Shown here: in pieces, positions 752 through 56,651 of the stretch
Position numbering within the stretch: position 1 is the first letter of the stretch
How the letters are laid out: every line of letters begins with the position of its first letter
Assembly: GCA_013388835.1 (NCBI GenBank)
Contig: JACAEL010000026.1
Location: 92,780 to 156,779, forward strand
From: Candidatus Thorarchaeota archaeon
GTDB taxonomy: Archaea; Asgardarchaeota; Thorarchaeia; Thorarchaeales; Thorarchaeaceae
Direction: 5' to 3'
Length of the DNA stretch: 64,000 nt
Notes under the pieces: model-generated
Seen by the model: the letters and a program-made list of their open reading frames with translations, nothing else
Told to the model about the DNA's origin: nothing
Databases searched by the model: none
Position numbers and translations under genes: made by a program

Positions 752-3433
752 GTGGCCGAGCTGAACACACTCACTGTAATTATTGAATTCATTCCGCCTA
801 TCGTAGTCACGTTGGTCTATCTCATCGGACTGAGGCATCAGAGAAATCGCTACATCGAGGCATTTCTGCTTCTGATGTACATCAAGACTGTGACCTTCTT
901 TCTAATGTTGATGGCTCGCGCTGCTCTCGTCGTGAGTGGCTTCAATCCACAAGTCGATTCATCGACACTGGCATCGGTTCTCCTGACCGACTTCGTCTTC
1001 CAGTTCATGTACGCATTGCAAGAGCTACTGACATGGGTGATGGTGTCATTTATTGCAGTGCTGTTTGGTATGTTCGTGCTTGGAGTGAAGATGGCGTTTC
1101 AGGACCCACTGAAGATGCGTTTTGCAAACCTGATTCGTCGGATCACTGGCAAGACCCCCGAGAGTGACGGATTCAGTGGGTTCAGAGATAGGCTTAGTAA
1201 CCTGAGATTCGAAGGCCTTCCTGAACATCCGTTGGACCCGGCAGTGCAGTCACACGTATGGAGAGACTCTTGGAGAGACTACCTCATCATCGGGCTAGCA
1301 ACTCTGCTGCCATCAATACCCGCCTACATCGGCTCCTACCAGGACTACGTTTCAGGTGTCACCACCGCATCAGCTTATGCATCTGGTGTCTTTGTCCTCC
1401 TGACATGGATGTACCGTTTCGGGTATCCGTCGTCCAACCGCTTGGCAAAGGCTGCTGGGCTCAGACTGGGAGACCGAGACGTGGGCGGAGAGATGATGAG
1501 GGGGGTTCTTGGTTGGTTCTTTAGGTTCAACATCCTGCTCACACTGTTCTTCATCGGTCAGGATATCCATAGGGCGGTCTTCGCGCCACAGAGTGCTGAT
1601 GCCCTGAACAAGCTCGTCGATTACTACGTGCTGGGTGTGACTCAGGCCGCTCCGCCCATTCTATTTGCAATCATCGTGCTCCCACTGGCCGAGAAGTTCG
1701 CGGTCATCATGTATAAGAGCCTCTTCGAGTGGCTGTACGGCTTCAAAGCGCGCATGACCCAACTGCATCTGCGAGCAAGGGCGGTCAGTCTGGCGGGCTC
1801 TCTGACTACGGGTGGTGTTGCCACCCTTGGCTTCCTAGGTGCTATCGCGGGTGTGACACTGTTCACTGCATACAGCATCGGAGTCGGCTACGTATTCAGA
1901 CCCGGCTTGATAACAACTGATGTTGAGAAGCTGCTAGAGACCGCTGCCACGAATGCACAGCTGATAGTGCCGTTGAACTTCGTCATGCTAGTGTTTTCGA
2001 TTCCAATGGCCTTCATGATATTCACCGGAGTCGTTGGTCACTATGTGCGAAGCCGAACCGGCGGTAGTGTTGTGTCCTTCGGGGTCGTCGCTGCGGCTCT
2101 AGTCAGCATAATCCCCTACTTTGTGTTTCCGAACCTGGACTACATACTCGGGCCTGCGGTCAACGAAGTCGTATTCGAGGGCACCTCATTCTACAGAGTG
2201 CGGTGGCTTGTGTATGTCGCAACGGAAGATCTCCTCCTATCGAGGTACGCGTTCCAGTTCCTAGTGAATGTGCCGATATGGCTATCCTCTGCGATATTTG
2301 TCATGTACTACCTTGAGTATCGCAAGCGATGGCAGGTCAAGTGCGGAGTGACACTCCGACCGCTGCTAAGCGTCTGCGCCGAGGATGTCCGACATGTCGT
2401 GACGATGTTTGTCGTGGGACTTGCAGTGGCAGCCGCCGGCGTGATATGCCTGTCCTTCCTAGTGGCACCCGTGGTGCTGATCCATCTAATAGAATCGCTC
2501 ATTGCCGAAATAGGCCTGCCCGATGGTCTAGAGGCGGCCCTTGCAATGCCGGGAGTTATGCCACTGCTTCTGATGGAACACAACTTGATCCGGACTCTCT
2601 TGATGCTGGTCATAGGCCCGGTCTTTTGGACACTGATACTCTGGGTTGTTGCGGTGAAGCAGAAGACCCAATCGGAGAGGACTGTTGCACTACTTGGTAT
2701 TGTGATGATAGTCTACTGTGGGATAATCGCCATAGTTCTGACGATGCTATACCCGAACCCCTTCGGACCGCAGCCGTGGGTATCGCCACAAGCGGTCTTG
2801 GGATACCATGCACTGAGAGTGTACAGTGTCCTCTTTGGTGCTTGTCTATTGGTACTGCTGGTCCGGAGAGTTGCTGGTCTAAACAGTGGAGGCTGGTGGT
2901 TCCCACCACTTGCCACTCTCTTCGTGACGGAATACCTTGTCTATGATGACCAGTTCACACTCATAGCTCTGATTGTGCTTCCCTTCGTACTCGCACCTGC
3001 GATGAGAGTGCTTGAGAGGGACAAGACCCATGATGATGAGGACTTCTTACTCACGTACATCCGAGTGAGTCTCATGTCTGTGGCGATTGCGGAGGTGCTG
3101 TCAACAGCTCTCTGGGTGGCCGGCATCGGCACACTCGCATTCATGTATGGTAATGGCCTCTCGTATCTCGCAAGCATACTCCCTCACGGTGTCATCGAGA
3201 TACCTGCATTCCTGTTCGCCGCGGCAGCCTCGCTCACAATAGCAAGGGAGCTGGGTCCATCAGTGACAAGAGAAGAATGGGACGCCATTCCGTCGAAGAC
3301 AAGGTCTCTGTTGACTGATGCCCGACTCTGGAGGACGTTCATCCTGATAGCGTTCTTCCTGTTCATCGGGGCGATGATTGAGGCCTATGTGACTCCTCTG
3401 GTGTCTCAGATGGTGGAGTACGGATTCCTGTGA
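752..3433 (+). CDS. Large polytopic membrane protein (893 aa) whose C-terminal ~200 aa is SpoIIM/DUF95-like.
   Basis: Hydrophobic helices run throughout. The C-terminus carries ...MYGNGLSYLASILPHGVIEIPAFLFAAAASL..., matching the HG-x-x-E-[LI]-P-A signature of the stage II sporulation protein M / DUF95 membrane family. Start is GTG at 752; downstream ATGs are alternative starts. Stop is TGA. Confidence 0.6.
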   Translation: MAELNTLTVIIEFIPPIVVTLVYLIGLRHQRNRYIEAFLLLMYIKTVTFFLMLMARAALVVSGFNPQVDSSTLASVLLTDFVFQFMYALQELLTWVMVSFIAVLFGMFVLGVKMAFQDPLKMRFANLIRRITGKTPESDGFSGFRDRLSNLRFEGLPEHPLDPAVQSHVWRDSWRDYLIIGLATLLPSIPAYIGSYQDYVSGVTTASAYASGVFVLLTWMYRFGYPSSNRLAKAAGLRLGDRDVGGEMMRGVLGWFFRFNILLTLFFIGQDIHRAVFAPQSADALNKLVDYYVLGVTQAAPPILFAIIVLPLAEKFAVIMYKSLFEWLYGFKARMTQLHLRARAVSLAGSLTTGGVATLGFLGAIAGVTLFTAYSIGVGYVFRPGLITTDVEKLLETAATNAQLIVPLNFVMLVFSIPMAFMIFTGVVGHYVRSRTGGSVVSFGVVAAALVSIIPYFVFPNLDYILGPAVNEVVFEGTSFYRVRWLVYVATEDLLLSRYAFQFLVNVPIWLSSAIFVMYYLEYRKRWQVKCGVTLRPLLSVCAEDVRHVVTMFVVGLAVAAAGVICLSFLVAPVVLIHLIESLIAEIGLPDGLEAALAMPGVMPLLLMEHNLIRTLLMLVIGPVFWTLILWVVAVKQKTQSERTVALLGIVMIVYCGIIAIVLTMLYPNPFGPQPWVSPQAVLGYHALRVYSVLFGACLLVLLVRRVAGLNSGGWWFPPLATLFVTEYLVYDDQFTLIALIVLPFVLAPAMRVLERDKTHDDEDFLLTYIRVSLMSVAIAEVLSTALWVAGIGTLAFMYGNGLSYLASILPHGVIEIPAFLFAAAASLTIARELGPSVTREEWDAIPSKTRSLLTDARLWRTFILIAFFLFIGAMIEAYVTPLVSQMVEYGFL

Positions 3434-4372
3434 GTCGTCCGTGCTTCCCATCTGAGGGAAGACTGTCAGTTGTCTAACAGACACAGTTGGATGCAGGAGT
3501 CTTGCCACCGTAAGGAGACCATATTGGAGTAATTCTTCGAGGTCCGCCTTGGTGGTGAGTTGACCTCAGTTTAGGTATCTCTGCACCGGGATAAGCATAC
3601 TCGTGTGCTATCTCCGCGAGTGTCCAGCTTCTGGACGGCTATTGCCAACCCGTTGAGAACCGGATGCTGACCACGATTGCATCTAGGAGATGACATTCGG
3701 TGGCCAATGAATGCCAATGCACACTCTATGATCTGAGAATTGATCCGGTAGTGGTATTCGCGTAAGCCGAGTAGGCTGTATTAGACTCGTTCGAAGTGAT
3801 ATGGCCTGTTACAATGACCGTGACTCGTCCATCTCTGCTTCTAGCTGCAGGTTCATGATTGATGGCATTGCGACAACATCCGGTCTATGAGTGATACAGC
3901 ATGAAGAGGGGCTGTACCGGACGGCAGTATCTGGATCGATTGAGGTGTCGGTGCAGACAATCGAGGCGTCAACAGCGCCTGACAAGACTGAAGGTGATGT
4001 GATAGGTCCGGAACACCAACGACTGCCATGACTCGTCTAGCTGAAACGTCGTGGCGACACCATAAGCGGCATCTGCAGGTGGCTTCAAGAAACACTGCTC
4101 TTGTCCGTGCATGCTGTGATCCTCTCATTCAGATCGAAAGCAAGCGTCATGCTTGCCGGCTTGAAGTCATTTCCATACTGTCCAACCACAACTTCCGCAC
4201 ATGGAATTCACCATGAAGTAAGCTTATAACGTTTCCAACGGATATGACTCTATTGTTAATGGCCATCACCGATGAAGGTTTCGCGCTTGTGGACTGCCAA
4301 CTGTTGTGACACACTCCTTAGCAGTGCGAGACAGTCAGCGACTGATGGGCATCCGCTCAGAGGTGACCCTTC

Positions 4373-7300
4373 TTGAGGTTGAGAACAAGCAGCACTCCTC
4401 TAGTACTCCCATGTCTACTACTCACTCTGCTGATGATTCTGCCAGTCGTCCCGACAATACCGAGCGGGGCTGAATCTCTTGCTCCTGTCACGGTGTTGGG
4501 GCCACCGACTGGACCGAGCATGCGAGCAGATTATCCTTACAACTACACGCATGTTGTCTGGGAACAGGGAACAAGAAGCGAGTCTTACAGCGACTCTTAC
4601 GCGTTCCAGGACTGGCAGTTTGGCCCCGCGATAAGATGGCAGATCAAGAATGCCACCACAGGGGCTTCCATAACAGTCATGGATACGCTAGTGATTGACG
4701 GTTGGTTCGACTTGGAGGTACAGACTCCAAAGGCCTCTCTGCGAGGGCAGCTGCCATACGCAGTCGGTGTCATGGGCACATACTTCAACGTGACAGAGAT
4801 GGCGACTGGGGAATTCTCATCAAATACCATCGCCATGATTGCGGTGTATATTGTGCCCCAGAACCGCTGGGAGTTCTACTCCTCATGGAATGCGACATGG
4901 GCAGAGCCTATCGAGTCCGGTGGTTTCAAGGAGAGTCCTGTCGAGGCGACTGACCTGCCCCCAGACTGGAGCTTTGAGGATGAGTTCGGTCCTGCAGTCA
5001 ACCCCTTCCTTGAGCAGGACAAGACTGCCAGTCAGTACTACATTGGTCCAGATGATGTCTGGACAAGCTTTCGGTTCAAGCTGAACGAAAGCTCACCACG
5101 AGGGGTCTTCAGCTTTGGAGCAATGGCACTAGACAGCAACCTGAATCCACTGGCCGAGAGCATAGCCACAGAAGAGAGCGCAAGGACCGTGGGCATGACG
5201 CTCCACGAGGTCTTGGCCGAAGCCACTGGTGGTTACTACGAGTTGAGCCGCCTTGATGATGACGGCAACACGGTCTACTCGGCGACTCGGGGCGTTGACT
5301 TCAATGTGACACTTCGAATTGGAGGTTTTAACCTCGACAATGCGACTGTCTTCTTCGAGCTGCCGTGGCAGGTCCTCCGAGAGGAGTTGGTCGAAGGTCC
5401 CTACCAAGAGCACATTCAACGAACCGGCGGATGGGTGTTTGACGTGAGCGCGGGCACCTATGTCTGGAACGCGTCTCTGGTGGTCGATACTGTTGAAGTC
5501 CGATATGGCCTTCATTGGGAGACGCATCCGGTGTACATCGATTCGGGAACAACGTACTCTGTCTGGGATGACGACCTCGGGCAATATGTGGATGTCTGGA
5601 CCCCTGGCTATGTCGCTCTGGTTTACTGGTTCGAGAACAACTCCTTCTCGACGATGTACGGATACATGGTTGATGGTTACAAGTGGGTTGTCGAAGGCCT
5701 AGACGCGCACCCTAACCTGCCGCTGTCGTTCATTCTTAACACAACCTCAAGCATACACTACTATGCTGATGGGCACGACTACGTGGTCTTCAGAGGACAC
5801 GTCAGTGAAGACATGTTGCCCACCGGCGGTGCTAGTTGGCAAGCAATGCATATGGATGTCCAAGTCCTGACAGAAGACGACAAGCGACTGATACCCTTCG
5901 CAAGCCTGCCATTTGCAGATGAGAGTGACATCGCAATGGATCAGATGCTGAGGGTACTCGCCGTAGAGAGTCCTGTTTCCGTTGTTGAGTTGACTCGGAA
6001 AGAGGAAGAGTATCGATCCAACTGGTTATTCGCAGTTGACAGAGGTGACACCTTCACAGTGCGCGCGCGACTCCAAGGCGGCGCCGATGTGGCCGGTGAG
6101 ATTGATGGTGTGGCGTTCGTGCTTAGCTCCTATGAGCATGAATGGGGGACTGACGCCTTCGGTGACTGGTCACAAGAAGAGTCCGTGGAGCTGTGGATTC
6201 GTGCTTCACCTGCAGGTCAGTTCGAAGTGAAGACCTACAACACTACGAGGAGGGTGTCCTATGAATATGGCACATACTGGGAGTGGCAGTACATTGAGGT
6301 CTTCGACGGCTTCTGGGACTGGCAACTTGTAGAGATCACCGGATATGGCTGGCATGAGAAGTGGTGGAACTTTACGTCGGGCACTTGGACTGACATACCT
6401 CTGTACAGATTCGCTCCTGAGACCGTGATGCCAGTGACATTTGCTGAGGCTGGGAACCTCACCTACGAGTTGGTTGGCAATGACCTTCGAGTCGCATTTG
6501 ATGTGACTGTTACCCAGTCGATGCCTGAGACCAGTTGGGACTGGCAGTTCTTCTATGGCGACCTTCAGATGGTGATTGACTACGAGTCTGGTTGGGGGTA
6601 CCATGAGCTCTTGGGTTGGAAGTACGACTTGGTATACAGCTACCAGGATGGCCCGGATCGCCTATATGCAGAACGGCCGTATCGCGGGCATACAATGCGG
6701 AACAATGACACAGACGAGCTTTACCATGCAGACTGGAGTGCCTACATATCCATCGGTGGCACGAATCACACTGTGAGAAAGTTCGTGGAGCAGTATCCGG
6801 ATGGTCTTGTCTATGAGCGTTTCATCTACGAGGAGTGGGACCCCACTGCGTACGACCCGTGGACTGGAGGTTATACAGGCAATTGGGTGCGGTACTACGT
6901 ATTGGATAACGGTACACGCATAGACGTTCTTGAAGGACACGAGTCCGAGATATACAATATCACCGTGCAGTCCGGAGAGTGGTTCCTAGCGCTTCACGAC
7001 GCACCTTGGGGGGTGCCCTATATGCCGGGTCTACAGAGGCTGATGCTGGCGAACGGAACGGTGCTGATAGAACCTGACGCCTATTGGGCAGGCTTCGGAG
7101 CTACCCCACTTGGCACTGTCCCCGTTGCGAAGATTGGACGTTACTCGCTGCTGAATGCTTCCATCTCCGTCTACTGGGCTGTGGACCCCGTTTGGATGGG
7201 TGACCACTATACATTCTATGTCAATGGTACCAATGCGCCGGTAGATGTGTGGTACGGTTATGCGCCCGATATCGATTTCGAGGGCTACTTCTACTTCAAC

Positions 7301-51076: not shown

Positions 51077-51349
51077 CTGTCTTTCCTCATTGGTGATATG
51101 GTGTGGCTGAAGGCTGTTCCCTCAGCTTTTCAGTCCAGTCAGCCATCCTGTGTTAAAAGGCTTCGGATGTAGTTCATCGTACGTGGATGTTCGGGTGACG
51201 ACTCTTGCTTGGTCCTTCTCGACTCTGAGGATGCGACGTTCTGCGCTTGCACCCAGGACGTGACTGTTGTGACAGAGCGTCTGATGGGGAAACGTTAATC
51301 TTGAACCACTCTATCAGGTCTTCGACCCCACTTCCGGGATGCCGCAGGG

Positions 51350-51883
51350 GTGACATTACGCATGGCAGAAGATGGCACATATCTGAGAGCTAAACTGACA
51401 GAGATCAACGTTGCTATTGACAGGCTTACGGACATGATGAACCGGATGGTCGAGGTTATGACCCGGCTCAGTGAGTCAACGCAGTCTCTGGACAGTCTGA
51501 GCAGGTCCGTGGCGGGAAACAACGAGAGGCTGGACGAGCTGATGAAGACGCTCAAGGGTCTGTCTGCGGGGGGTGGCCTTACTGCTGAGGGGCGCGGTGC
51601 TGCTGACAGGGGTCAGCTCTCTTCGCTCGCGGCAGTCCTTGACACACTGGACAGTCAGATAAGGGACGGCGTCATCGCGAGTGACCTGGCCAAGAAGATT
51701 GATGACTCTGCAACAATGATGGAGCAGAAGGGAGGTGCTGCAGCCCTGGTGGTCAAGATGCAGCGCTGGGTCCGAATCCTCAGGACTTACGGGAGGGTCG
51801 ACCCGATAAGCTCCGCTGACCTGTCCAAGCTTCGGGCGGATCTGAAAGAGTGGCAGAAGGAAATCAGCCAGATGCGTACATAG
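51350..51883 (+). CDS. Hypothetical coiled-coil protein (177 aa).
   Basis: Heptad-like helical composition (…NERLDELMKTLKGLS…LSKLRADLKEWQKEISQMRT), preceded by an AT-poor but conserved-looking promoter gap. No family assigned. Confidence 0.45.
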   Translation: MTLRMAEDGTYLRAKLTEINVAIDRLTDMMNRMVEVMTRLSESTQSLDSLSRSVAGNNERLDELMKTLKGLSAGGGLTAEGRGAADRGQLSSLAAVLDTLDSQIRDGVIASDLAKKIDDSATMMEQKGGAAALVVKMQRWVRILRTYGRVDPISSADLSKLRADLKEWQKEISQMRT

Positions 51884-52023
51884 GATTCATCGGTATTGTG
51901 TAATGCCAGTCAGTTTATCGTCACCGCATGCAAAAAAGGCGTATCTAAAGCCACATGCTGAATGCTTAATAGGCGAAGAGAGGACAATAAATCTGACTTC
52001 GCCGGGATAACCAGAGGTGCACG

Positions 52024-52365
52024 TTGATGATTGACTCGCGGACTGACGATGCCATAGGTGGTATAATCAACGAGTTCCCACAGCCCTACCGAGATGCGAC
52101 CATGCGACTGTGGGAGCTCTGGAAGAATACAGACCCAACGCCACCTTATTACCTCTCATGGTCTGAGTTCGCTTCGAATCACGACGACGCAGGAGCACTC
52201 TACACAGAACAGAGAGTGTACAACAGAAGAATCACCAATGAGCTCAGGTCGCTTGAAGTACCAAGGACGCTACGCCAGAGAGTAGCACACGCTCTGGCAG
52301 CAGTCGCAGGGATCTTCCTGGTCGTGTTTCTAGCGCTGTCACGAGCACTCAGAGCTGCAGAGTGA
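52024..52365 (+). CDS. Hypothetical small protein with a C-terminal TM helix (113 aa).
   Basis: Soluble N-terminal region followed by the C-terminal hydrophobic helix AAVAGIFLVVFLALSRAL. Confidence 0.4.
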   Translation: MMIDSRTDDAIGGIINEFPQPYRDATMRLWELWKNTDPTPPYYLSWSEFASNHDDAGALYTEQRVYNRRITNELRSLEVPRTLRQRVAHALAAVAGIFLVVFLALSRALRAAE

Positions 52366-53958: not shown

Positions 53959-54417
53959 TTAGTACTCCTCTGCCGTCAGAGAAGCGCCGATTACTCCGGG
54001 GATGAAGAGCAGACCAAAGGATGCCGCCAAGTCTATTGCAATTGTCTGGGCGAGGTTGGCAAGTGCCGTGGGTTCGAGTGCCATGCTCAGCGAGAGGGCT
54101 GCGTATCCAATGAAGAACAGGACTAGAGCAATGATGGACACGAACAGCATTCTCACTCCGCTCTTAGAGATGAGCCCGGCGATAAACCCGGCCACGCCAA
54201 GAGCGACAATTGGAGCGTAGACACCAGAGAGCGCAAAGTGATAGGGGAATATCAGCTGAGCAAAAAGCAGCGCCCCCTGATACTTTAGAGCATCAGTCAG
54301 ACTGGGTGAACCGAGGATTGCCTGTATGGCAGCAATGTCGAGACCCAGTATCTGAAAGGCCCCAATCACTATCGACACGATTAGTGTGATTAGAAGTGCT
54401 ATTATTGTTCGGAACAT
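53959..54417 (-). CDS. Hypothetical small membrane protein (152 aa).
   Basis: Four hydrophobic helices; no family. Confidence 0.45.
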   Translation of the reverse strand: MFRTIIALLITLIVSIVIGAFQILGLDIAAIQAILGSPSLTDALKYQGALLFAQLIFPYHFALSGVYAPIVALGVAGFIAGLISKSGVRMLFVSIIALVLFFIGYAALSLSMALEPTALANLAQTIAIDLAASFGLLFIPGVIGASLTAEEY

Positions 54418-54550
54418 CTTGATTCAACTCCGAGAGTTGACTGCGTACAGGCAGGTTCTAGTCCACTTATATCTGTTAGCACACCTGTTCATGCCAAGCT
54501 GAACCGGTCCTCAGACGAGGTGGTCTCTTCAACCGGTCGCGGGACTCCTC

Positions 54551-55714
54551 TCAGATTGATGCCAGCGAGTCTGGTATGGGTGCTTCAGACTGACATGAAG
54601 TACATCTTACACAGGATATCTGCGAAGCAGTCTGGGCTGTGGGAAGCGAGACTTTGAAGCTGGTATTGCATATCGAACAATGGGCCTTGATGTAGCCTCG
54701 CAGCTCAATCGATTTGCGCCATGCTCGTTCAGCTTCAGTCCTCTGTCCTCGTCTACCGAGTTCCACTGCCAGCAACACCCATGGCGCGGCTGAGTTCGGG
54801 TCGTGCTCGGTGGCTCTTCTGAGGCACTCAAACATCTTCTCGTGCTCGCCAAGTCTGAGCAGTGCATCACAGAGCCGGTACCAAGAATCACAGTCCTCAC
54901 ATGTGAGACTCCACGCCCTCTCAAGATACTTGTTGCTCTCTTTCTCTGCTCCCAGGTATTTCGATATGACCGCAAGTCGGCCCAGTGCCTCAACACTATC
55001 CGAGCTCATCTTCAGTGCGTCGCCAAACAGTGTCTCAGCTCTGTGATAGAGTCCTGACTGGAAGTAATACTCTGCAGCCAGCATCTTGGTCCTGTAGTCA
55101 TTGGGGGCCATTGCAATGGCACGCTCCACAAGTGGGGCCGCCTCCTCAAAACGCCCCAGGATCACCGACGAGTAGGCGTAGTTGGTTAATGCTATCAGTG
55201 AGTCAGGGTTGAGGTGGAAGAGCACACCCCACTCTTGTGCAGCCTCAGTGTAGTCGCCTTGCTTGTGCAACACCATCGCTCGCAGATTATGCAACGCAGA
55301 GTCGTTGGGGAACCGACCGACTCCCTCGTCCAGTAGCTTGGCTGCCTGACGGTAGTCAGTTCGCTGATAATGCACTTCCGCAAGATCCGCCCATGCTTCA
55401 GGCACATCTGAACCCAGTGCCAGTGCCCGTGTCAGGTACTTCTCTGCGCTGTCGTAATTCTCAAGGGCCTTGTACGCTCTACCCAGGAAGAGGCACAACA
55501 CACAGTGTTCTTCGACCAGTTCTTCAGCCTTCGTCAACACCGAGACTGCGCGCTGGGGTTGCGCAGACTGGAGGTATGCAAGTCCCAGAAGCACCATTGC
55601 ATCCGGGTTGTCGTCGTCTTCCTCTAGGATTGCCTCCAAGACGTGCATGGCCTCTTCGATGCGACCGTCTTCAAGCGCTTCCTCTGCGAGCTTGAGTCTG
55701 TCGCTCTTCACCAT
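54551..55714 (-). CDS. TPR-repeat protein with a C-terminal zinc-ribbon-like Cys cluster.
   Basis: Multiple 34-aa TPR units (…AMVLLGLAYLQSAQPQRAVSVLTKA…; …AWADLAEVHYQRTDYRQAAKLL…). The C-terminus is HCSICNTSF...CVRCTSCQ (CxxC...CxxC). The start was chosen at MVKSDRL; the longer ORF-track version overlaps the divergent methyltransferase gene. Confidence 0.7.
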   Translation of the reverse strand: MVKSDRLKLAEEALEDGRIEEAMHVLEAILEEDDDNPDAMVLLGLAYLQSAQPQRAVSVLTKAEELVEEHCVLCLFLGRAYKALENYDSAEKYLTRALALGSDVPEAWADLAEVHYQRTDYRQAAKLLDEGVGRFPNDSALHNLRAMVLHKQGDYTEAAQEWGVLFHLNPDSLIALTNYAYSSVILGRFEEAAPLVERAIAMAPNDYRTKMLAAEYYFQSGLYHRAETLFGDALKMSSDSVEALGRLAVISKYLGAEKESNKYLERAWSLTCEDCDSWYRLCDALLRLGEHEKMFECLRRATEHDPNSAAPWVLLAVELGRRGQRTEAERAWRKSIELRGYIKAHCSICNTSFKVSLPTAQTASQISCVRCTSCQSEAPIPDSLASI

Positions 55715-55811
55715 ATGTGCCTCTGTCCTCAGCCAATCCACGAGTGACGACGTCGTGATTCTGGCGGCTAGGGCTGACTGACCACAAGTCTCGATATAAG
55801 TACGAATCGAT

Positions 55812-56651
55812 GTGGCAAATGTGATGTACGCCACTCCTTTCTCTCTGTTAAACGGCGTCAGTCTCCTCAGCCAGAAGTCAAGGCTGGCAAAGTTCAGGGA
55901 TGCGCTGTCAAGAGTGGTCCGACAGGACTCTCTTGTGATCGACCTCGGGTCGGGATCTGGAGTCCTTGCGCTGCTCGCCGCCAGAATGGGTGCCCGACGG
56001 GTGATTGCAGTCGAGATAAACGAGAGCACTGCGAACTACGCCCGACAGGCTGCACGACTGAACGGACTTGAACAGAAGGTCGAGTTCGCAGTATGCCACT
56101 TTGCGGACTTCTATCCTGATGAGCTCGCGGATGTTGTGGTCTGCGAGATGCTCTGCTCGATGATGCTCGTCGAACAGCAGGTTGCGGCAAGTCATCATGC
56201 AGTGAGGCATCTGCTCAGACCGGGCGGGGTGTTACTCCCAAGACGCGCGGACGTGTACGTTGTGCCCGTTGAGTGTGAGGATGTCTGGAGACGGTTCAAG
56301 TTCGACACTCTGGTCTTTCCGCCGATGCCTCAGACGGTAGGTGTGGGAGAGGCCCGGGACCTTGCAGACCCACAGGCCGTCGCACACTTGGACTTTATCT
56401 CTTCAGCACATCAGACGGTCGATGCGTGTATAAGCTTCCGGATTGCTGAGGACGGGGTGATGCATGGCATCTGTGGGATGTTCGAAGCGTTCTTGGACGA
56501 TCTGACAAGACTTGACATGACAGACGGCTGGCGCGACCTGTTTGTACCACTAAAAGACCCAGTCGAAGTGACCGCTGGTGACTCGGTCGTGATAGAGTTG
56601 TCCTACACACCGGGTGAACTGCACACATTGAGACTTGTCGCCCGGCGGTGA
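55812..56651 (+). CDS. SAM-dependent methyltransferase, protein arginine N-methyltransferase (PRMT)-like.
   Basis: Motif I VIDLGSGSGVLALLAARMG, post-I RVIAVEINE, and the double-E-loop region DVVVCEMLCSMMLVEQQV followed by LLRPGGVLLP. A ~130-aa C-terminal beta-domain follows, as in PRMTs rather than PrmA. Confidence 0.6.
   Translation: MANVMYATPFSLLNGVSLLSQKSRLAKFRDALSRVVRQDSLVIDLGSGSGVLALLAARMGARRVIAVEINESTANYARQAARLNGLEQKVEFAVCHFADFYPDELADVVVCEMLCSMMLVEQQVAASHHAVRHLLRPGGVLLPRRADVYVVPVECEDVWRRFKFDTLVFPPMPQTVGVGEARDLADPQAVAHLDFISSAHQTVDACISFRIAEDGVMHGICGMFEAFLDDLTRLDMTDGWRDLFVPLKDPVEVTAGDSVVIELSYTPGELHTLRLVARR

Follow-up and report, generated by a model that had tools for sequence, protein, structure and literature searches.

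Does the PRMT-like gene of a Thorarchaeota genome encode a protein arginine methyltransferase (PRMT), where does it come from, and does its product work with the tetratricopeptide repeat (TPR)/zinc-ribbon protein encoded back to back with it? We addressed these questions in a contiguous stretch of 64 kb from a Candidatus Thorarchaeota archaeon, referred to here as the window. Both open reading frames lie where the initial annotation had placed them, with the methyltransferase on the plus strand and the TPR/zinc-ribbon protein on the minus strand. The features of the locus are collected in Table 1.

Table 1. Features of the methyltransferase–TPR/zinc-ribbon locus, in window coordinates.
Feature	Coordinates	Strand	Details
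TPR/zinc-ribbon protein CDS	54551..55714	-	387 aa; ATG start (MVKSD...); TPR Pfam families, E 1e-20 to 1e-33
C-terminal Cys4 zinc ribbon YIKAHCSICNTSFKVSLPTAQTASQISCVRCTSCQSEAP, then conserved tail MPxxL	54578..54694	-	CxxC-x21-CxxC; C346, C349, C371, C374
TPR superhelix	54698..55714	-	Residues 1-339; 20 helices (about 10 hairpins); DSSP of AF2 model
Divergent intergenic region	55715..55823	.	109 bp to ATG 55824; 97 bp to GTG 55812
Methyltransferase TATA box TATAAGTA	55795..55802	+	TATAAG[TA]A in 12/13 loci; L012 keeps ATAAGTA
Conserved promoter-proximal box ATGTGGCAA	55810..55818	+	Between TATA box and start codon; TTATGGCAA in most loci
PRMT-fold SAM-dependent methyltransferase CDS	55824..56651	+	275 aa; alternative in-frame GTG 55812 gives 279 aa
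Motif I VIDLGSGSG, SAM-binding glycine-rich loop	55935..55961	+	Residues 38-46; translation
Double-E loop VCEMLCSMMLVEQQV, predicted guanidinium-binding hairpin	56139..56183	+	E108-x8-E117; translation, PRMT7 alignment
C-terminal beta-barrel domain	56244..56648	+	Residues about 141-275; shortened arm segment 150-184
D234-G235-W236 at PRMT 'THW' loop position	56523..56531	+	Translation, profile alignment

The initial annotation took the methyltransferase for a PRMT rather than for PrmA, and sequence, profile and structural comparisons all bear out a PRMT fold. The best 60 matches of a phmmer search against the PDB were all PRMTs, with PRMT7 at an E-value of 2.4e-17 and residues 17–163 aligned, double-E loop included. 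A profile built from the Thorarchaeota family matched PRMT7 at 6e-31 and PRMT9 at 1e-27, in alignments that cover the beta-barrel as far as the THW position. The AF2 model has a pLDDT of 95, and the top 50 Foldseek matches obtained with it were again all PRMTs (TMq about 0.8). Across these searches, the top matches were PRMT7 from mouse (4c4a) and Trypanosoma brucei (4m38/5eku) and PRMT9 (6pdm/7rbq/8rbk). Motif I, the double-E loop and the PRMT-specific C-terminal beta-barrel are all present; the Pfam family PRMT_C (PF22528) was not matched, and PRMT5_C scored under its cut-off. Judged by its sequence and predicted model, the protein is a compact class I enzyme with the fold of eukaryotic PRMTs, not a canonical PRMT.

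An identity as PrmA, the methyltransferase of ribosomal protein L11 (lysine and N-terminal), would agree with current database annotation. PF06325 (PrmA) is the best Pfam match by E-value (3.6e-15), and at NCBI, P0001 (the call for this gene) and many of its orthologs go under the name '50S ribosomal protein L11 methyltransferase'. However, the Pfam match pairs residues 31–119 with profile positions 154–240 of 296 and is thereby confined to the class I Rossmann SAM-binding core that both enzymes share. The part of the profile before position 154 is unmatched, with a PRMT beta-barrel in its place, and the NCBIfam prmA model gave 47 bits, far under its cut-off of 183. The fold comparison refutes this assignment, to which we give almost no credence, and we regard the PrmA naming of these proteins as a systematic misannotation, corrected here. 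A PADLOC match to mad2 of the MADS defense system (1.4e-19) was likewise set aside, being limited to the Rossmann part (residues 21–138); among three neighboring genes tested, none gave a defense-system match of note.

The predicted binding residues are strongly conserved. Within motif I, D40, G42, G44 and G46 are invariant across 25 Thorarchaeota orthologs (alignment A2), and the acidic post-I position 64 is occupied by E or D in the Thorarchaeota, bacterial and eukaryotic groups. The proposed alignment of the double-E loop holds: HMMER pairs it with lsEifgtmmlgEs of TbPRMT7 and itElfdteligEg of PRMT7, and both E108 and E117 are found in 11/11 Thorarchaeota, 60/67 bacterial and 5/5 eukaryotic sequences. 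In the N-terminal helix motif ML.D..R...Y, the arginine (R20) is invariant in all groups compared. R20, E108, E117 and W236 do not vary among the Thorarchaeota orthologs, and their conservation extends to bacterial and eukaryotic relatives.

Two further PRMT hallmarks that the initial annotation had singled out for checking, the THW loop and the dimerization arm, depart from their canonical form. Of Thr-His-Trp, the Thorarchaeota orthologs retain the Trp alone. The translation of positions 56514–56546 reads DMTDGWRDLFV, the D, G and W of this loop are invariant in the 25 orthologs of alignment A2, and the family profile 'edGWrdlflPl' aligns on PRMT9 'ETCWEQAVYPV' and 'SHWKQAAVVL'. The column of G235 holds His in eukaryotes and in 23 of the 67 bacterial sequences; the middle THW residue is Cys in module 1 of PRMT9 (T-C-W) and Ser in PRMT5. 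The helix Asp position (residue 17) is H in seven and Q in four of the Thorarchaeota sequences, and D in 60/67 bacterial and 5/5 eukaryotic ones. From our own alignment, we take this position to be that of PRMT1 D51, the partner of the THW His. Both residues contribute to PRMT1 activity, and since both are replaced here, changed catalysis or specificity may follow. The helix Met (PRMT1 M48 in our alignment) is Leu in 10/11 Thorarchaeota sequences and Met in 57/67 bacterial and 5/5 eukaryotic ones, and Q119 occupies the position of PRMT1 M155.

The arm segment spans 35 residues, compared with a bacterial median of 48 and 47–55 in eukaryotes, and is thus about 13 residues shorter; the AF2 model places one short helix (152–158) where PRMTs have a longer arm. 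Type I PRMTs need arm-mediated dimerization for activity. The members of this class (PRMT1/8/3/6, CARM1 and PRMT2) are about 20–24% identical to the Thorarchaeota enzyme and have a canonical THW loop, the helix Asp and a full dimerization arm, whereas the Thorarchaeota enzyme is without all three. PRMT7 and PRMT9 have in common with it the Rossmann and beta-barrel domains, the E-x8-E double-E loop, the N-terminal helix Arg and the THW-loop Trp, and PRMT9 module 1 also resembles it in the non-His middle residue of that loop. However, PRMT7 and PRMT9 consist of two tandem modules, while the Thorarchaeota protein is a single module that differs from them in its D-G-W loop, replaced helix Asp and shorter arm.

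The neighboring gene product is identical to NCBI entry P0121, 'tetratricopeptide repeat protein [Candidatus Thorarchaeota archaeon]'. A longer reading frame of this gene with a GTG start (54551–56029), which overlaps the methyltransferase gene, was rejected, as the ortholog alignment gives it no support. In the AF2 model (pLDDT 91.6), the TPR superhelix is followed by four short strands at residues 341–379, in the zinc-ribbon region. The four ribbon cysteines are invariant in 13/13 orthologs and in 8/8 of a second ortholog set. The best Foldseek matches include the TPR domain of O-GlcNAc transferase (OGT), designed CTPR superhelices, SPINDLY, BBSome TPR subunits (chains 4 and 8 of 6vbv/6vbu) and APC/C subunits. 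The OGT domain is the best structural match, in a likeness that is generic to TPR superhelices. Orthologs share 36–46% identity and, where named, carry only Thorarchaeota names; generic TPR proteins follow from E 1e-16.

The divergent TPR/zinc-ribbon neighbor reported by the initial annotation is real and conserved. It is adjacent to the methyltransferase gene in 13/13 loci, comprising the window and 12/12 related Thorarchaeota loci; one locus is labelled Hermodarchaeota. At least seven genes are syntenic in Thorarchaeota: two small ORFs, RecJ, a membrane protein, the TPR and methyltransferase genes and a phosphoribosyltransferase gene. Because this larger block is also syntenic, adjacency alone is weak evidence for a partnership and could stem from gene order being conserved in general. 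A Nudix gene is present in most other Thorarchaeota loci and absent from the window and from L012, and the gap between the methyltransferase and phosphoribosyltransferase genes ranges from 62 to about 790 bp across loci; the pair is undisturbed by either variation. At none of 68 non-Thorarchaeota loci is a TPR gene placed in this way, next to the PRMT-like gene and divergent from it. L026 carries a same-strand TPR ORF immediately upstream of the PRMT-like gene, and the TPR matches at L051 and L053 are all weak and 1.5–2.7 kb off. A precedent for combining the two domain types is the PRMT9-like protein P0274, whose 850 residues comprise N-terminal TPRs and two PRMT modules. The Thorarchaeota locus does not have this PRMT9-type architecture, its TPRs being encoded by a separate, divergent gene that ends in a zinc ribbon.

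Upstream of the methyltransferase gene, the promoter elements help to define its start. The reading frame ends at 56651 and could begin at GTG 55812 or ATG 55824; the NCBI call (P0001) uses the ATG. An in-frame ATG lies exactly 29 nt downstream of the TATA box (+29) in 8 of 10 analyzable loci, among them L008–L010, in which no start codon occurs at +17, where the window has its GTG. Since the +29 spacing is conserved while some loci have no start at +17, ATG 55824 is the likely start codon, and its distance from the TATA box would imply a leaderless mRNA. The shared divergent region described by the initial annotation is confirmed, but its stated length of 97 bp gives way to 109 bp with this start. 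The spacer measures 82–126 bp in 12/13 loci. The pattern TATAAGWA has a single match in the whole 64-kb window, namely the methyltransferase TATA box. We also considered the promoter-proximal box as a universal start codon of the methyltransferase and rejected it: L008–L010 read ATAGGGGAA at this position, with no in-frame start, and the ATG in the box of L001 is out of frame.

On balance, we consider it probable that the locus encodes a PRMT-fold methyltransferase of bacterial derivation that carries out arginine N-methylation, with the TPR/zinc-ribbon protein as its scaffold, recruiter or substrate. In this mechanism, SAM would be held by motif I, the acidic post-I residue E64 and R20 of the N-terminal helix, and the guanidinium group of the substrate would be clamped between the two double-E glutamates, E108 and E117. 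W236, located in the D-G-W loop on the C-terminal beta-barrel, would close the pocket. The enzyme would most likely N-methylate an arginine side chain, with a protein or peptide as its substrate. We infer arginine as the substrate, a protein as the target, and a physical complex in which the TPR/zinc-ribbon protein acts as adaptor. The latter would most likely recruit or scaffold the substrate, in a role resembling that of the TPR domain in OGT or of the TPRs at the N terminus of PRMT9, or could itself be the substrate, and it may compensate for the shortened dimerization arm. Within the 64-kb window, we found no convincing RG/RGG-rich ORF as a candidate substrate.

We further asked whether the two proteins might form a two-subunit PRMT in which a substrate-selecting TPR scaffold replaces both the arm and the THW His, convergent with or related to PRMT9. 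This would be the first system for protein arginine methylation to be described in Archaea; we regard this extension as possible, yet rather doubtful. PRMT5–MEP50 is a two-subunit PRMT like the proposed pair, but MEP50 is a WD40 rather than a TPR protein. OGT, PRMT5–MEP50 and the proposed pair would follow the same idea, in which a non-catalytic repeat protein presents substrates to an enzyme. Should the activity prove true, protein arginine methylation, usually deemed eukaryotic, would operate in an Asgard archaeal lineage, and the 275-residue protein would offer a minimal PRMT from which to learn which parts of the fold, such as the arm and the THW His, are dispensable.

Several other readings of the locus have to be weighed against this proposal. 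The TPR/zinc-ribbon gene could be a mere syntenic neighbor whose product does not work with the methyltransferase, as the collinearity of the entire block in Thorarchaeota genomes and the lack of an equivalent divergent TPR neighbor at bacterial PRMT-like loci would suggest. We take this possibility seriously while leaning against it: the methyltransferase–TPR junction is the sole invariant one, with flanks that vary in Nudix presence and gap length, both families share the same narrow phyletic range, the spacer is short, varies little in length and has conserved promoter elements toward the methyltransferase gene, and TPR–PRMT fusions such as P0274 are known. At the level of sequence, these observations support the methyltransferase and the TPR/zinc-ribbon protein as a functional pair.

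The substrate could also differ from the one proposed. A PRMT-fold enzyme might act on a small peptide, a natural product or free arginine, with the TPR neighbor unrelated to it. Bacterial PRMT relatives have been proposed to act in this way in secondary-metabolite operons, the distant homologs P0046 and P0063 carry a PqqD-like domain (PF05402), and the Thorarchaeota clade falls with bacteria in our rough trees. Nevertheless, we find such a role unlikely, because the neighboring genes are housekeeping ones (archaeal RecJ, phosphoribosyltransferase, Nudix), no NRPS, radical SAM, dioxygenase or precursor-peptide genes occur in the neighborhood, the nearest bacterial subgroup consists of stand-alone genes in varied contexts, and the only invariant, lineage-matched neighbor is a protein–protein interaction scaffold. 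Less likely still is an altered acceptor, whether a non-arginine nucleophile or monomethylation only with unusual kinetics, resulting from the loss of the THW His and helix Asp. All Thorarchaeota orthologs do have G235 for His and H or Q17 for Asp, and the Leu-for-Met replacement and Q119 point the same way, but both glutamates of the guanidinium clamp are invariant, W236 is kept, and the middle THW residue also varies in bona fide PRMTs such as PRMT9 and PRMT5.

As to origin, essentially no members of the methyltransferase and TPR/zinc-ribbon families turned up outside Thorarchaeota. In an exhaustive search with the methyltransferase family, scores fell from 334 to 171 bits on leaving the Thorarchaeota clusters. 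The premise of the initial annotation that prokaryotic PRMT homologs are rare does not survive: at least 423 tblastn-confirmed PRMT-like relatives are present among GTDB species representatives, such genes are carried by hundreds of bacterial species, and a bacterial radiation and a bacterial origin of PRMTs have been described (PMC3417536). The bacterial stand-alone proteins (loci L013–L080) are full-length homologs of the Thorarchaeota enzyme, with 25–35% identity among the matches listed. Among further archaeal matches is the Woesearchaeota locus L042. In the literature we searched, no PRMT from Asgard or other archaea was described, and PRMTs are not treated in PMC12872458 or in the archaeal histone papers.

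A subset of 25 bacterial proteins has in common with the Thorarchaeota family the signature D[VI]V[IV]CEML...E[QK]Q and a D-W motif. Members of this 'CEML' subgroup come from, for example, Nitrosomonas, Methylobacter, Haliangiales, Labilithrix and Pirellula. They resemble the Thorarchaeota enzyme in the double-E signature, in D-W replacing H-W and in a short arm; in contrast, the helix Asp is retained in them, their genes lie next to neither a TPR/zinc-ribbon gene nor any other conserved neighbor, and they read LNALRF where the Thorarchaeota barrel motif is VHGLVG. Clustering of the genes around these 25 closest loci revealed no shared neighbor, and no characterization of 'CEML' PRMT-like proteins was found in the searchable literature. 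In crude NJ trees of moderate support, the subgroup joined the Thorarchaeota clade with bootstrap values of 0.70 (146 columns) and 0.68 (264 columns). Thorarchaeota sequences nevertheless score better with a broad bacterial HMM than with one built from the subgroup, and because this conflicts with the NJ grouping, the 'CEML' proteins are only tentatively the nearest relatives.

A special tie to eukaryotes found no echo in the trees: the 264-column NJ tree grouped Thorarchaeota with eukaryotes in 0/300 bootstraps. Neither of the two type I sequences in the full-length tree, PRMT8 and the fungal P0115, ever joined them (0/300), PRMT7 and PRMT9 were not grouped with them in the rough tree, and PRMT8 scored 212 bits against the bacterial HMM versus 87 bits against the Thorarchaeota HMM. 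As far as these comparisons reach, the Thorarchaeota family is best interpreted as having branched off from the bacterial PRMT-like radiation, not as an ancestor of eukaryotic PRMTs, with transfer presumably from bacteria to the archaeal lineage and probable fixation in the ancestor of Thorarchaeota. An archaeal-precursor story for eukaryotic PRMTs is tempered by this placement of the gene as a branch of the bacterial radiation, which is large and deserves biochemical attention. Among the nearest non-Thorarchaeota cluster representatives, P0150 alone bears a source name, 'protein arginine N-methyltransferase 1'.

The initial annotation described a methyltransferase (MTase) gene divergently paired with a gene for a TPR/zinc-ribbon protein. 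This observation is confirmed, all of the sequences quoted for it (double-E stretch VCEMLCSMMLVEQQV, motif I and the C-terminal CxxC...CxxC) are present in the window, and the interpretation as a whole is partly supported. Identical NCBI proteins exist for both products, namely P0001 (275 aa, [quoted passage not shown]) for the MTase and P0121 ([quoted passage not shown]) for its neighbor. The window accordingly belongs to an Asgard archaeon, in keeping with the archaeal RecJ encoded nearby. A longer, GTG-initiated TPR ORF reaching up to 56029 was rejected, as it overlaps the MTase gene and lacks ortholog support.

Coordinates of the gene pair, its motifs and other features in the window
Feature	Position	Strand	Basis
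MTase ORF	55812 (GTG) or 55824 (ATG) to 56651	+	ORF calling
TPR gene ORF, start ATG (MVKSD...)	54551-55714	-	ORF calling
Double-E stretch	56139-56183	+	translation
Motif I, VIDLGSGSG	55935-55961	+	translation
C-terminal CxxC...CxxC of TPR protein	54578-54694	-	translation
Conserved promoter elements	55795-55818		
TATAAGWA	55795-55802		
Gap (133 bp) downstream of TPR gene	54418-54550		
152-aa hydrophobic protein	53959-54417	-	
Small ORF upstream of RecJ	51305-51883	+	
Small ORF upstream of RecJ	51997-52365	+	
Giant ORF, 2412 aa	4373-11611	+	
Giant ORF, 1939 aa	11957-17776	+	
Giant ORF, 2135 aa	57455-63862	-	

The database name would make the MTase a PrmA (L11 methyltransferase), and PrmA is indeed its top Pfam match (3.6e-15). 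That match is limited to the shared Rossmann core (residues 31–119, aligned to profile positions 154–240 of 296), and the NCBIfam prmA models score 36–47 bits against cut-offs of 183–269. The best 60 PDB sequence matches are PRMTs only (PRMT7 at 2.4e-17, followed by TbPRMT7, PRMT6, PRMT1, CARM1 and others), with alignments running from residue 17 to about 163 and E108 and E117 falling on the double-E glutamates, as the initial annotation had proposed. A profile of 25 Thorarchaeota orthologs retrieved PRMT7 (6e-31) and PRMT9 (1e-27), the alignment now reaching through the beta-barrel; Pfam PRMT5_C gave a weak match to residues 197–263, below its cut-off. The AlphaFold2 model (pLDDT 95, pTM 0.90) likewise returned only PRMTs among its best 50 Foldseek matches (TbPRMT7, E 2.8e-23, TMq 0.81). 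Because the PrmA match is confined to the Rossmann core and the best PDB and Foldseek matches are all PRMTs, we reject the PrmA identity and consider the PRMT-family fold secure. The gene is thus misannotated at present, and we found no description of it, or of any archaeal or Asgard PRMT, in the searchable literature. The PADLOC "mad2" model also matches the MTase (55824-56651) through its Rossmann part only (1.4e-19), which could give false defense-system calls in automated annotation.

The MTase keeps, invariant or nearly so, R20 (the SAM-carboxylate arginine, equivalent to PRMT1 R54 in our own alignment), motif I, the acidic post-I residue, both double-E glutamates and the THW-loop tryptophan. 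Two elements singled out for checking, the THW loop and the dimerization arm, proved non-canonical. The THW position reads D-G-W in every Thorarchaeota ortholog, HMMER aligning "edGWrdlflPl" on PRMT9 "ETCWEQAVYPV" and "SHWKQAAVVL"; P0053, a bacterial-type homolog, retains THWKQ, the same as PRMT8. The aspartate of the N-terminal "ML.D..R" helix, present in 60 of 67 bacterial and all five eukaryotic sequences, is H or Q in Thorarchaeota. In PRMT1 this aspartate interacts with the THW histidine, so the Thorarchaeota enzymes have replaced both members of the pair together. The arm-bearing segment (residues 150–184) comprises 35 residues, compared with a bacterial median of 48 and a eukaryotic range of 47–55, and contains one short helix in the AlphaFold2 model.

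The 387-aa TPR protein matches many Pfam TPR families. Its model (pLDDT 91.6) contains 20 helices, or about ten hairpins, and a four-stranded ribbon at residues 341–379; in Foldseek comparison this model comes closest to generic TPR superhelices (the OGT TPR domain, designed CTPRs, SPINDLY, BBSome TPR subunits and APC/C subunits). All 13 orthologs have the four ribbon cysteines (C346, C349, C371 and C374), and a conserved MPxxL tail comes after them. Orthologs share 36–46% identity and, where named, are all from Thorarchaeota; below them come generic TPR proteins at E 1e-16. The gene adjoins the MTase gene divergently in all 12 related Thorarchaeota loci, and an equivalent adjacent divergent TPR gene occurs in none of the 68 inspected non-Thorarchaeota loci with PRMT-like genes. 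Only one of the latter, L026 from a Thermoanaerobaculia MAG, has an adjacent TPR gene at all, a large ORF (2891-5662, +) directly upstream of the PRMT-like match (6001-6849) on the same strand; L051 and L053 show only weak TPR matches 1.5–2.7 kb away. Within a known enzyme family, the MTase is a compact variant specific to its lineage, and its partner is both conserved and unusual.

Adjacency could simply reflect the collinearity of a whole block in Thorarchaeota genomes (two small ORFs, archaeal RecJ [NF053576, 3e-122], a 152-aa membrane protein, TPR, MTase and a phosphoribosyltransferase), which weakens the case for a functional link. The flanking junctions of this block vary, however: the gap between MTase and phosphoribosyltransferase ranges from 62 to about 790 bp, and most other Thorarchaeota loci have, between the TPR gene and the membrane-protein gene, a Nudix gene that the window and L012 lack. 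The TPR–MTase spacer stays at 82–126 bp in 12 of 13 loci, and this steadiness, together with the same narrow phyletic range of the two families and TPR–PRMT fusions among relatives (the PRMT9-like P0274), argues for a link. On balance, we favor the predicted functional pairing.

In 12 of 13 loci the shared spacer carries TTATAAG[TA]A, and the 64-kb window has no second TATAAGWA. Another conserved box, TTATGGCAA, lies about 8 nt further on. In 8 of 10 analyzable loci, including the window (55824), an in-frame ATG follows the T of TATAAG at a distance of exactly 29 nt. As this corresponds to the usual spacing between an archaeal TATA box and the start site, it suggests a leaderless MTase transcript, predicted to begin at 55824. 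The spacer would then measure 109 bp rather than the 97 bp of the initial annotation. We also considered the TTATGGCAA box as a universal MTase start codon and rejected it, since L008–L010 have no ATG there and the box ATG of L001 is out of frame. The promoter is conserved at the DNA level across the window and L001–L012 although the proteins are only about 50% identical, which suggests regulated expression and possibly a regulator-binding box.

We propose that the MTase would catalyze SAM-dependent N-methylation of an arginine guanidinium gripped by E108 and E117, with W236 shutting the pocket. Recruiting or holding the substrate would be the task of the TPR superhelix and zinc ribbon, which may also stand in for the shortened arm. 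Whereas the fold, the motifs, the gene pairing and the distribution are demonstrated, the acceptor, a target protein and an MTase–TPR complex are inferred; the window holds no RG-rich substrate candidates, and the bacterial relatives offer no contextual clue to the substrate.

A search of 5.8 billion proteins yielded about 41 MTase-family clusters at 49–56% identity, all named ones from Thorarchaeota, before identity fell to ≤34%. An exhaustive hmmsearch of 1.84 billion representatives gave two full-length Thorarchaeota clusters (410 and 334 bits) plus fragments, then dropped to 171 bits, with 272 matches at E ≤ 1e-30 and 6,750 at E ≤ 1e-10. Judged by sequence, the family is tight and isolated. 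Among the matches listed for GTDB species representatives were 12 Thorarchaeota loci, one labeled Hermodarchaeota, and tblastn confirmed more than 400 further relatives, a lower bound. Prokaryotic PRMT homologs, initially considered rare, are instead common; the 68 loci retained for inspection span many bacterial phyla and include one Woesearchaeota locus.

The double-E signature D[VI]V[IV]CEML...E[QK]Q and the D-W motif are common to Thorarchaeota and a 25-member bacterial "CEML" subgroup of stand-alone proteins of about 320 aa (e.g., Nitrosomonas, Methylobacter, Haliangiales, Labilithrix and Pirellula). In neighbor-joining trees (Kimura distances, 300 bootstraps), which are crude and possibly subject to long-branch effects, the Thorarchaeota clade received 0.99–1.00 and its grouping with this subgroup 0.70 (146 N-terminal columns) or 0.68 (264 columns). 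None of the 300 replicates of the full-length tree united Thorarchaeota with the two type I eukaryotic sequences, and in the N-terminal tree all five eukaryotic sequences (PRMT7 and PRMT9 among them) formed a separate, weakly supported cluster (0.30). PRMT8 scored 212 bits against a bacterial HMM and 87 against the Thorarchaeota HMM; as a caveat, Thorarchaeota sequences scored higher with the broad bacterial HMM than with the CEML-subgroup HMM. Our conservative conclusion is that the MTase forms a divergent branch of its own within the prokaryotic PRMT-like radiation, probably acquired from bacteria by the Thorarchaeota ancestor and with no specific relationship to eukaryotic PRMTs. A direct bearing on the origin of eukaryotic PRMTs is unlikely.

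The locus labeled "Candidatus Hermodarchaeota" (L003, JBHLLF010000073.1) has the same gene layout as the Thorarchaeota contig L004, with near-identical match coordinates; either the family reaches Hermodarchaeota or the MAG label is questionable. A PqqD-like domain (PF05402), which serves in peptide recognition in RiPP pathways, is present in two distant PRMT-like homologs of about 423 aa (P0046 and P0063); this agrees with the proposal that peptides are substrates of some bacterial PRMT homologs. In four metagenomic proteins of 676–744 aa (P0155, P0166, P0189 and P0203), the C-terminal half contains a good PRMT module, a second stretch matches more weakly, and the N-terminal half is without a Pfam match. 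Their better module is apparently C-terminal, opposite to mouse PRMT7, whose N-terminal module is best by profile.

The Nudix-hydrolase-like gene (about 150 aa) lies downstream of the TPR gene in L001 and L003–L011 (e.g., L005, 4246-4695, -) and was recognized by eye from its GGGVExGETxxxAxxREVxEETG box; the window has a 133-bp gap in its place. The 152-aa hydrophobic protein, encoded on the same strand as the TPR gene, recurs at 50–70% identity in 11 of 12 related loci, gave no Pfam or PADLOC match and is probably membrane-bound. The two small ORFs, syntenic in eight Thorarchaeota loci at 47–64% identity, had no Pfam match. Among the giant ORFs of the window, the 1939-aa ORF has no Pfam match whatever and the 2412-aa ORF only borderline ones (DUF7743 and CBM_56). 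The 2135-aa ORF, not syntenic in related Thorarchaeota loci, resembles a surface protein, with Big_1, Big_3_5, Filamin and MG2-like Ig domains.
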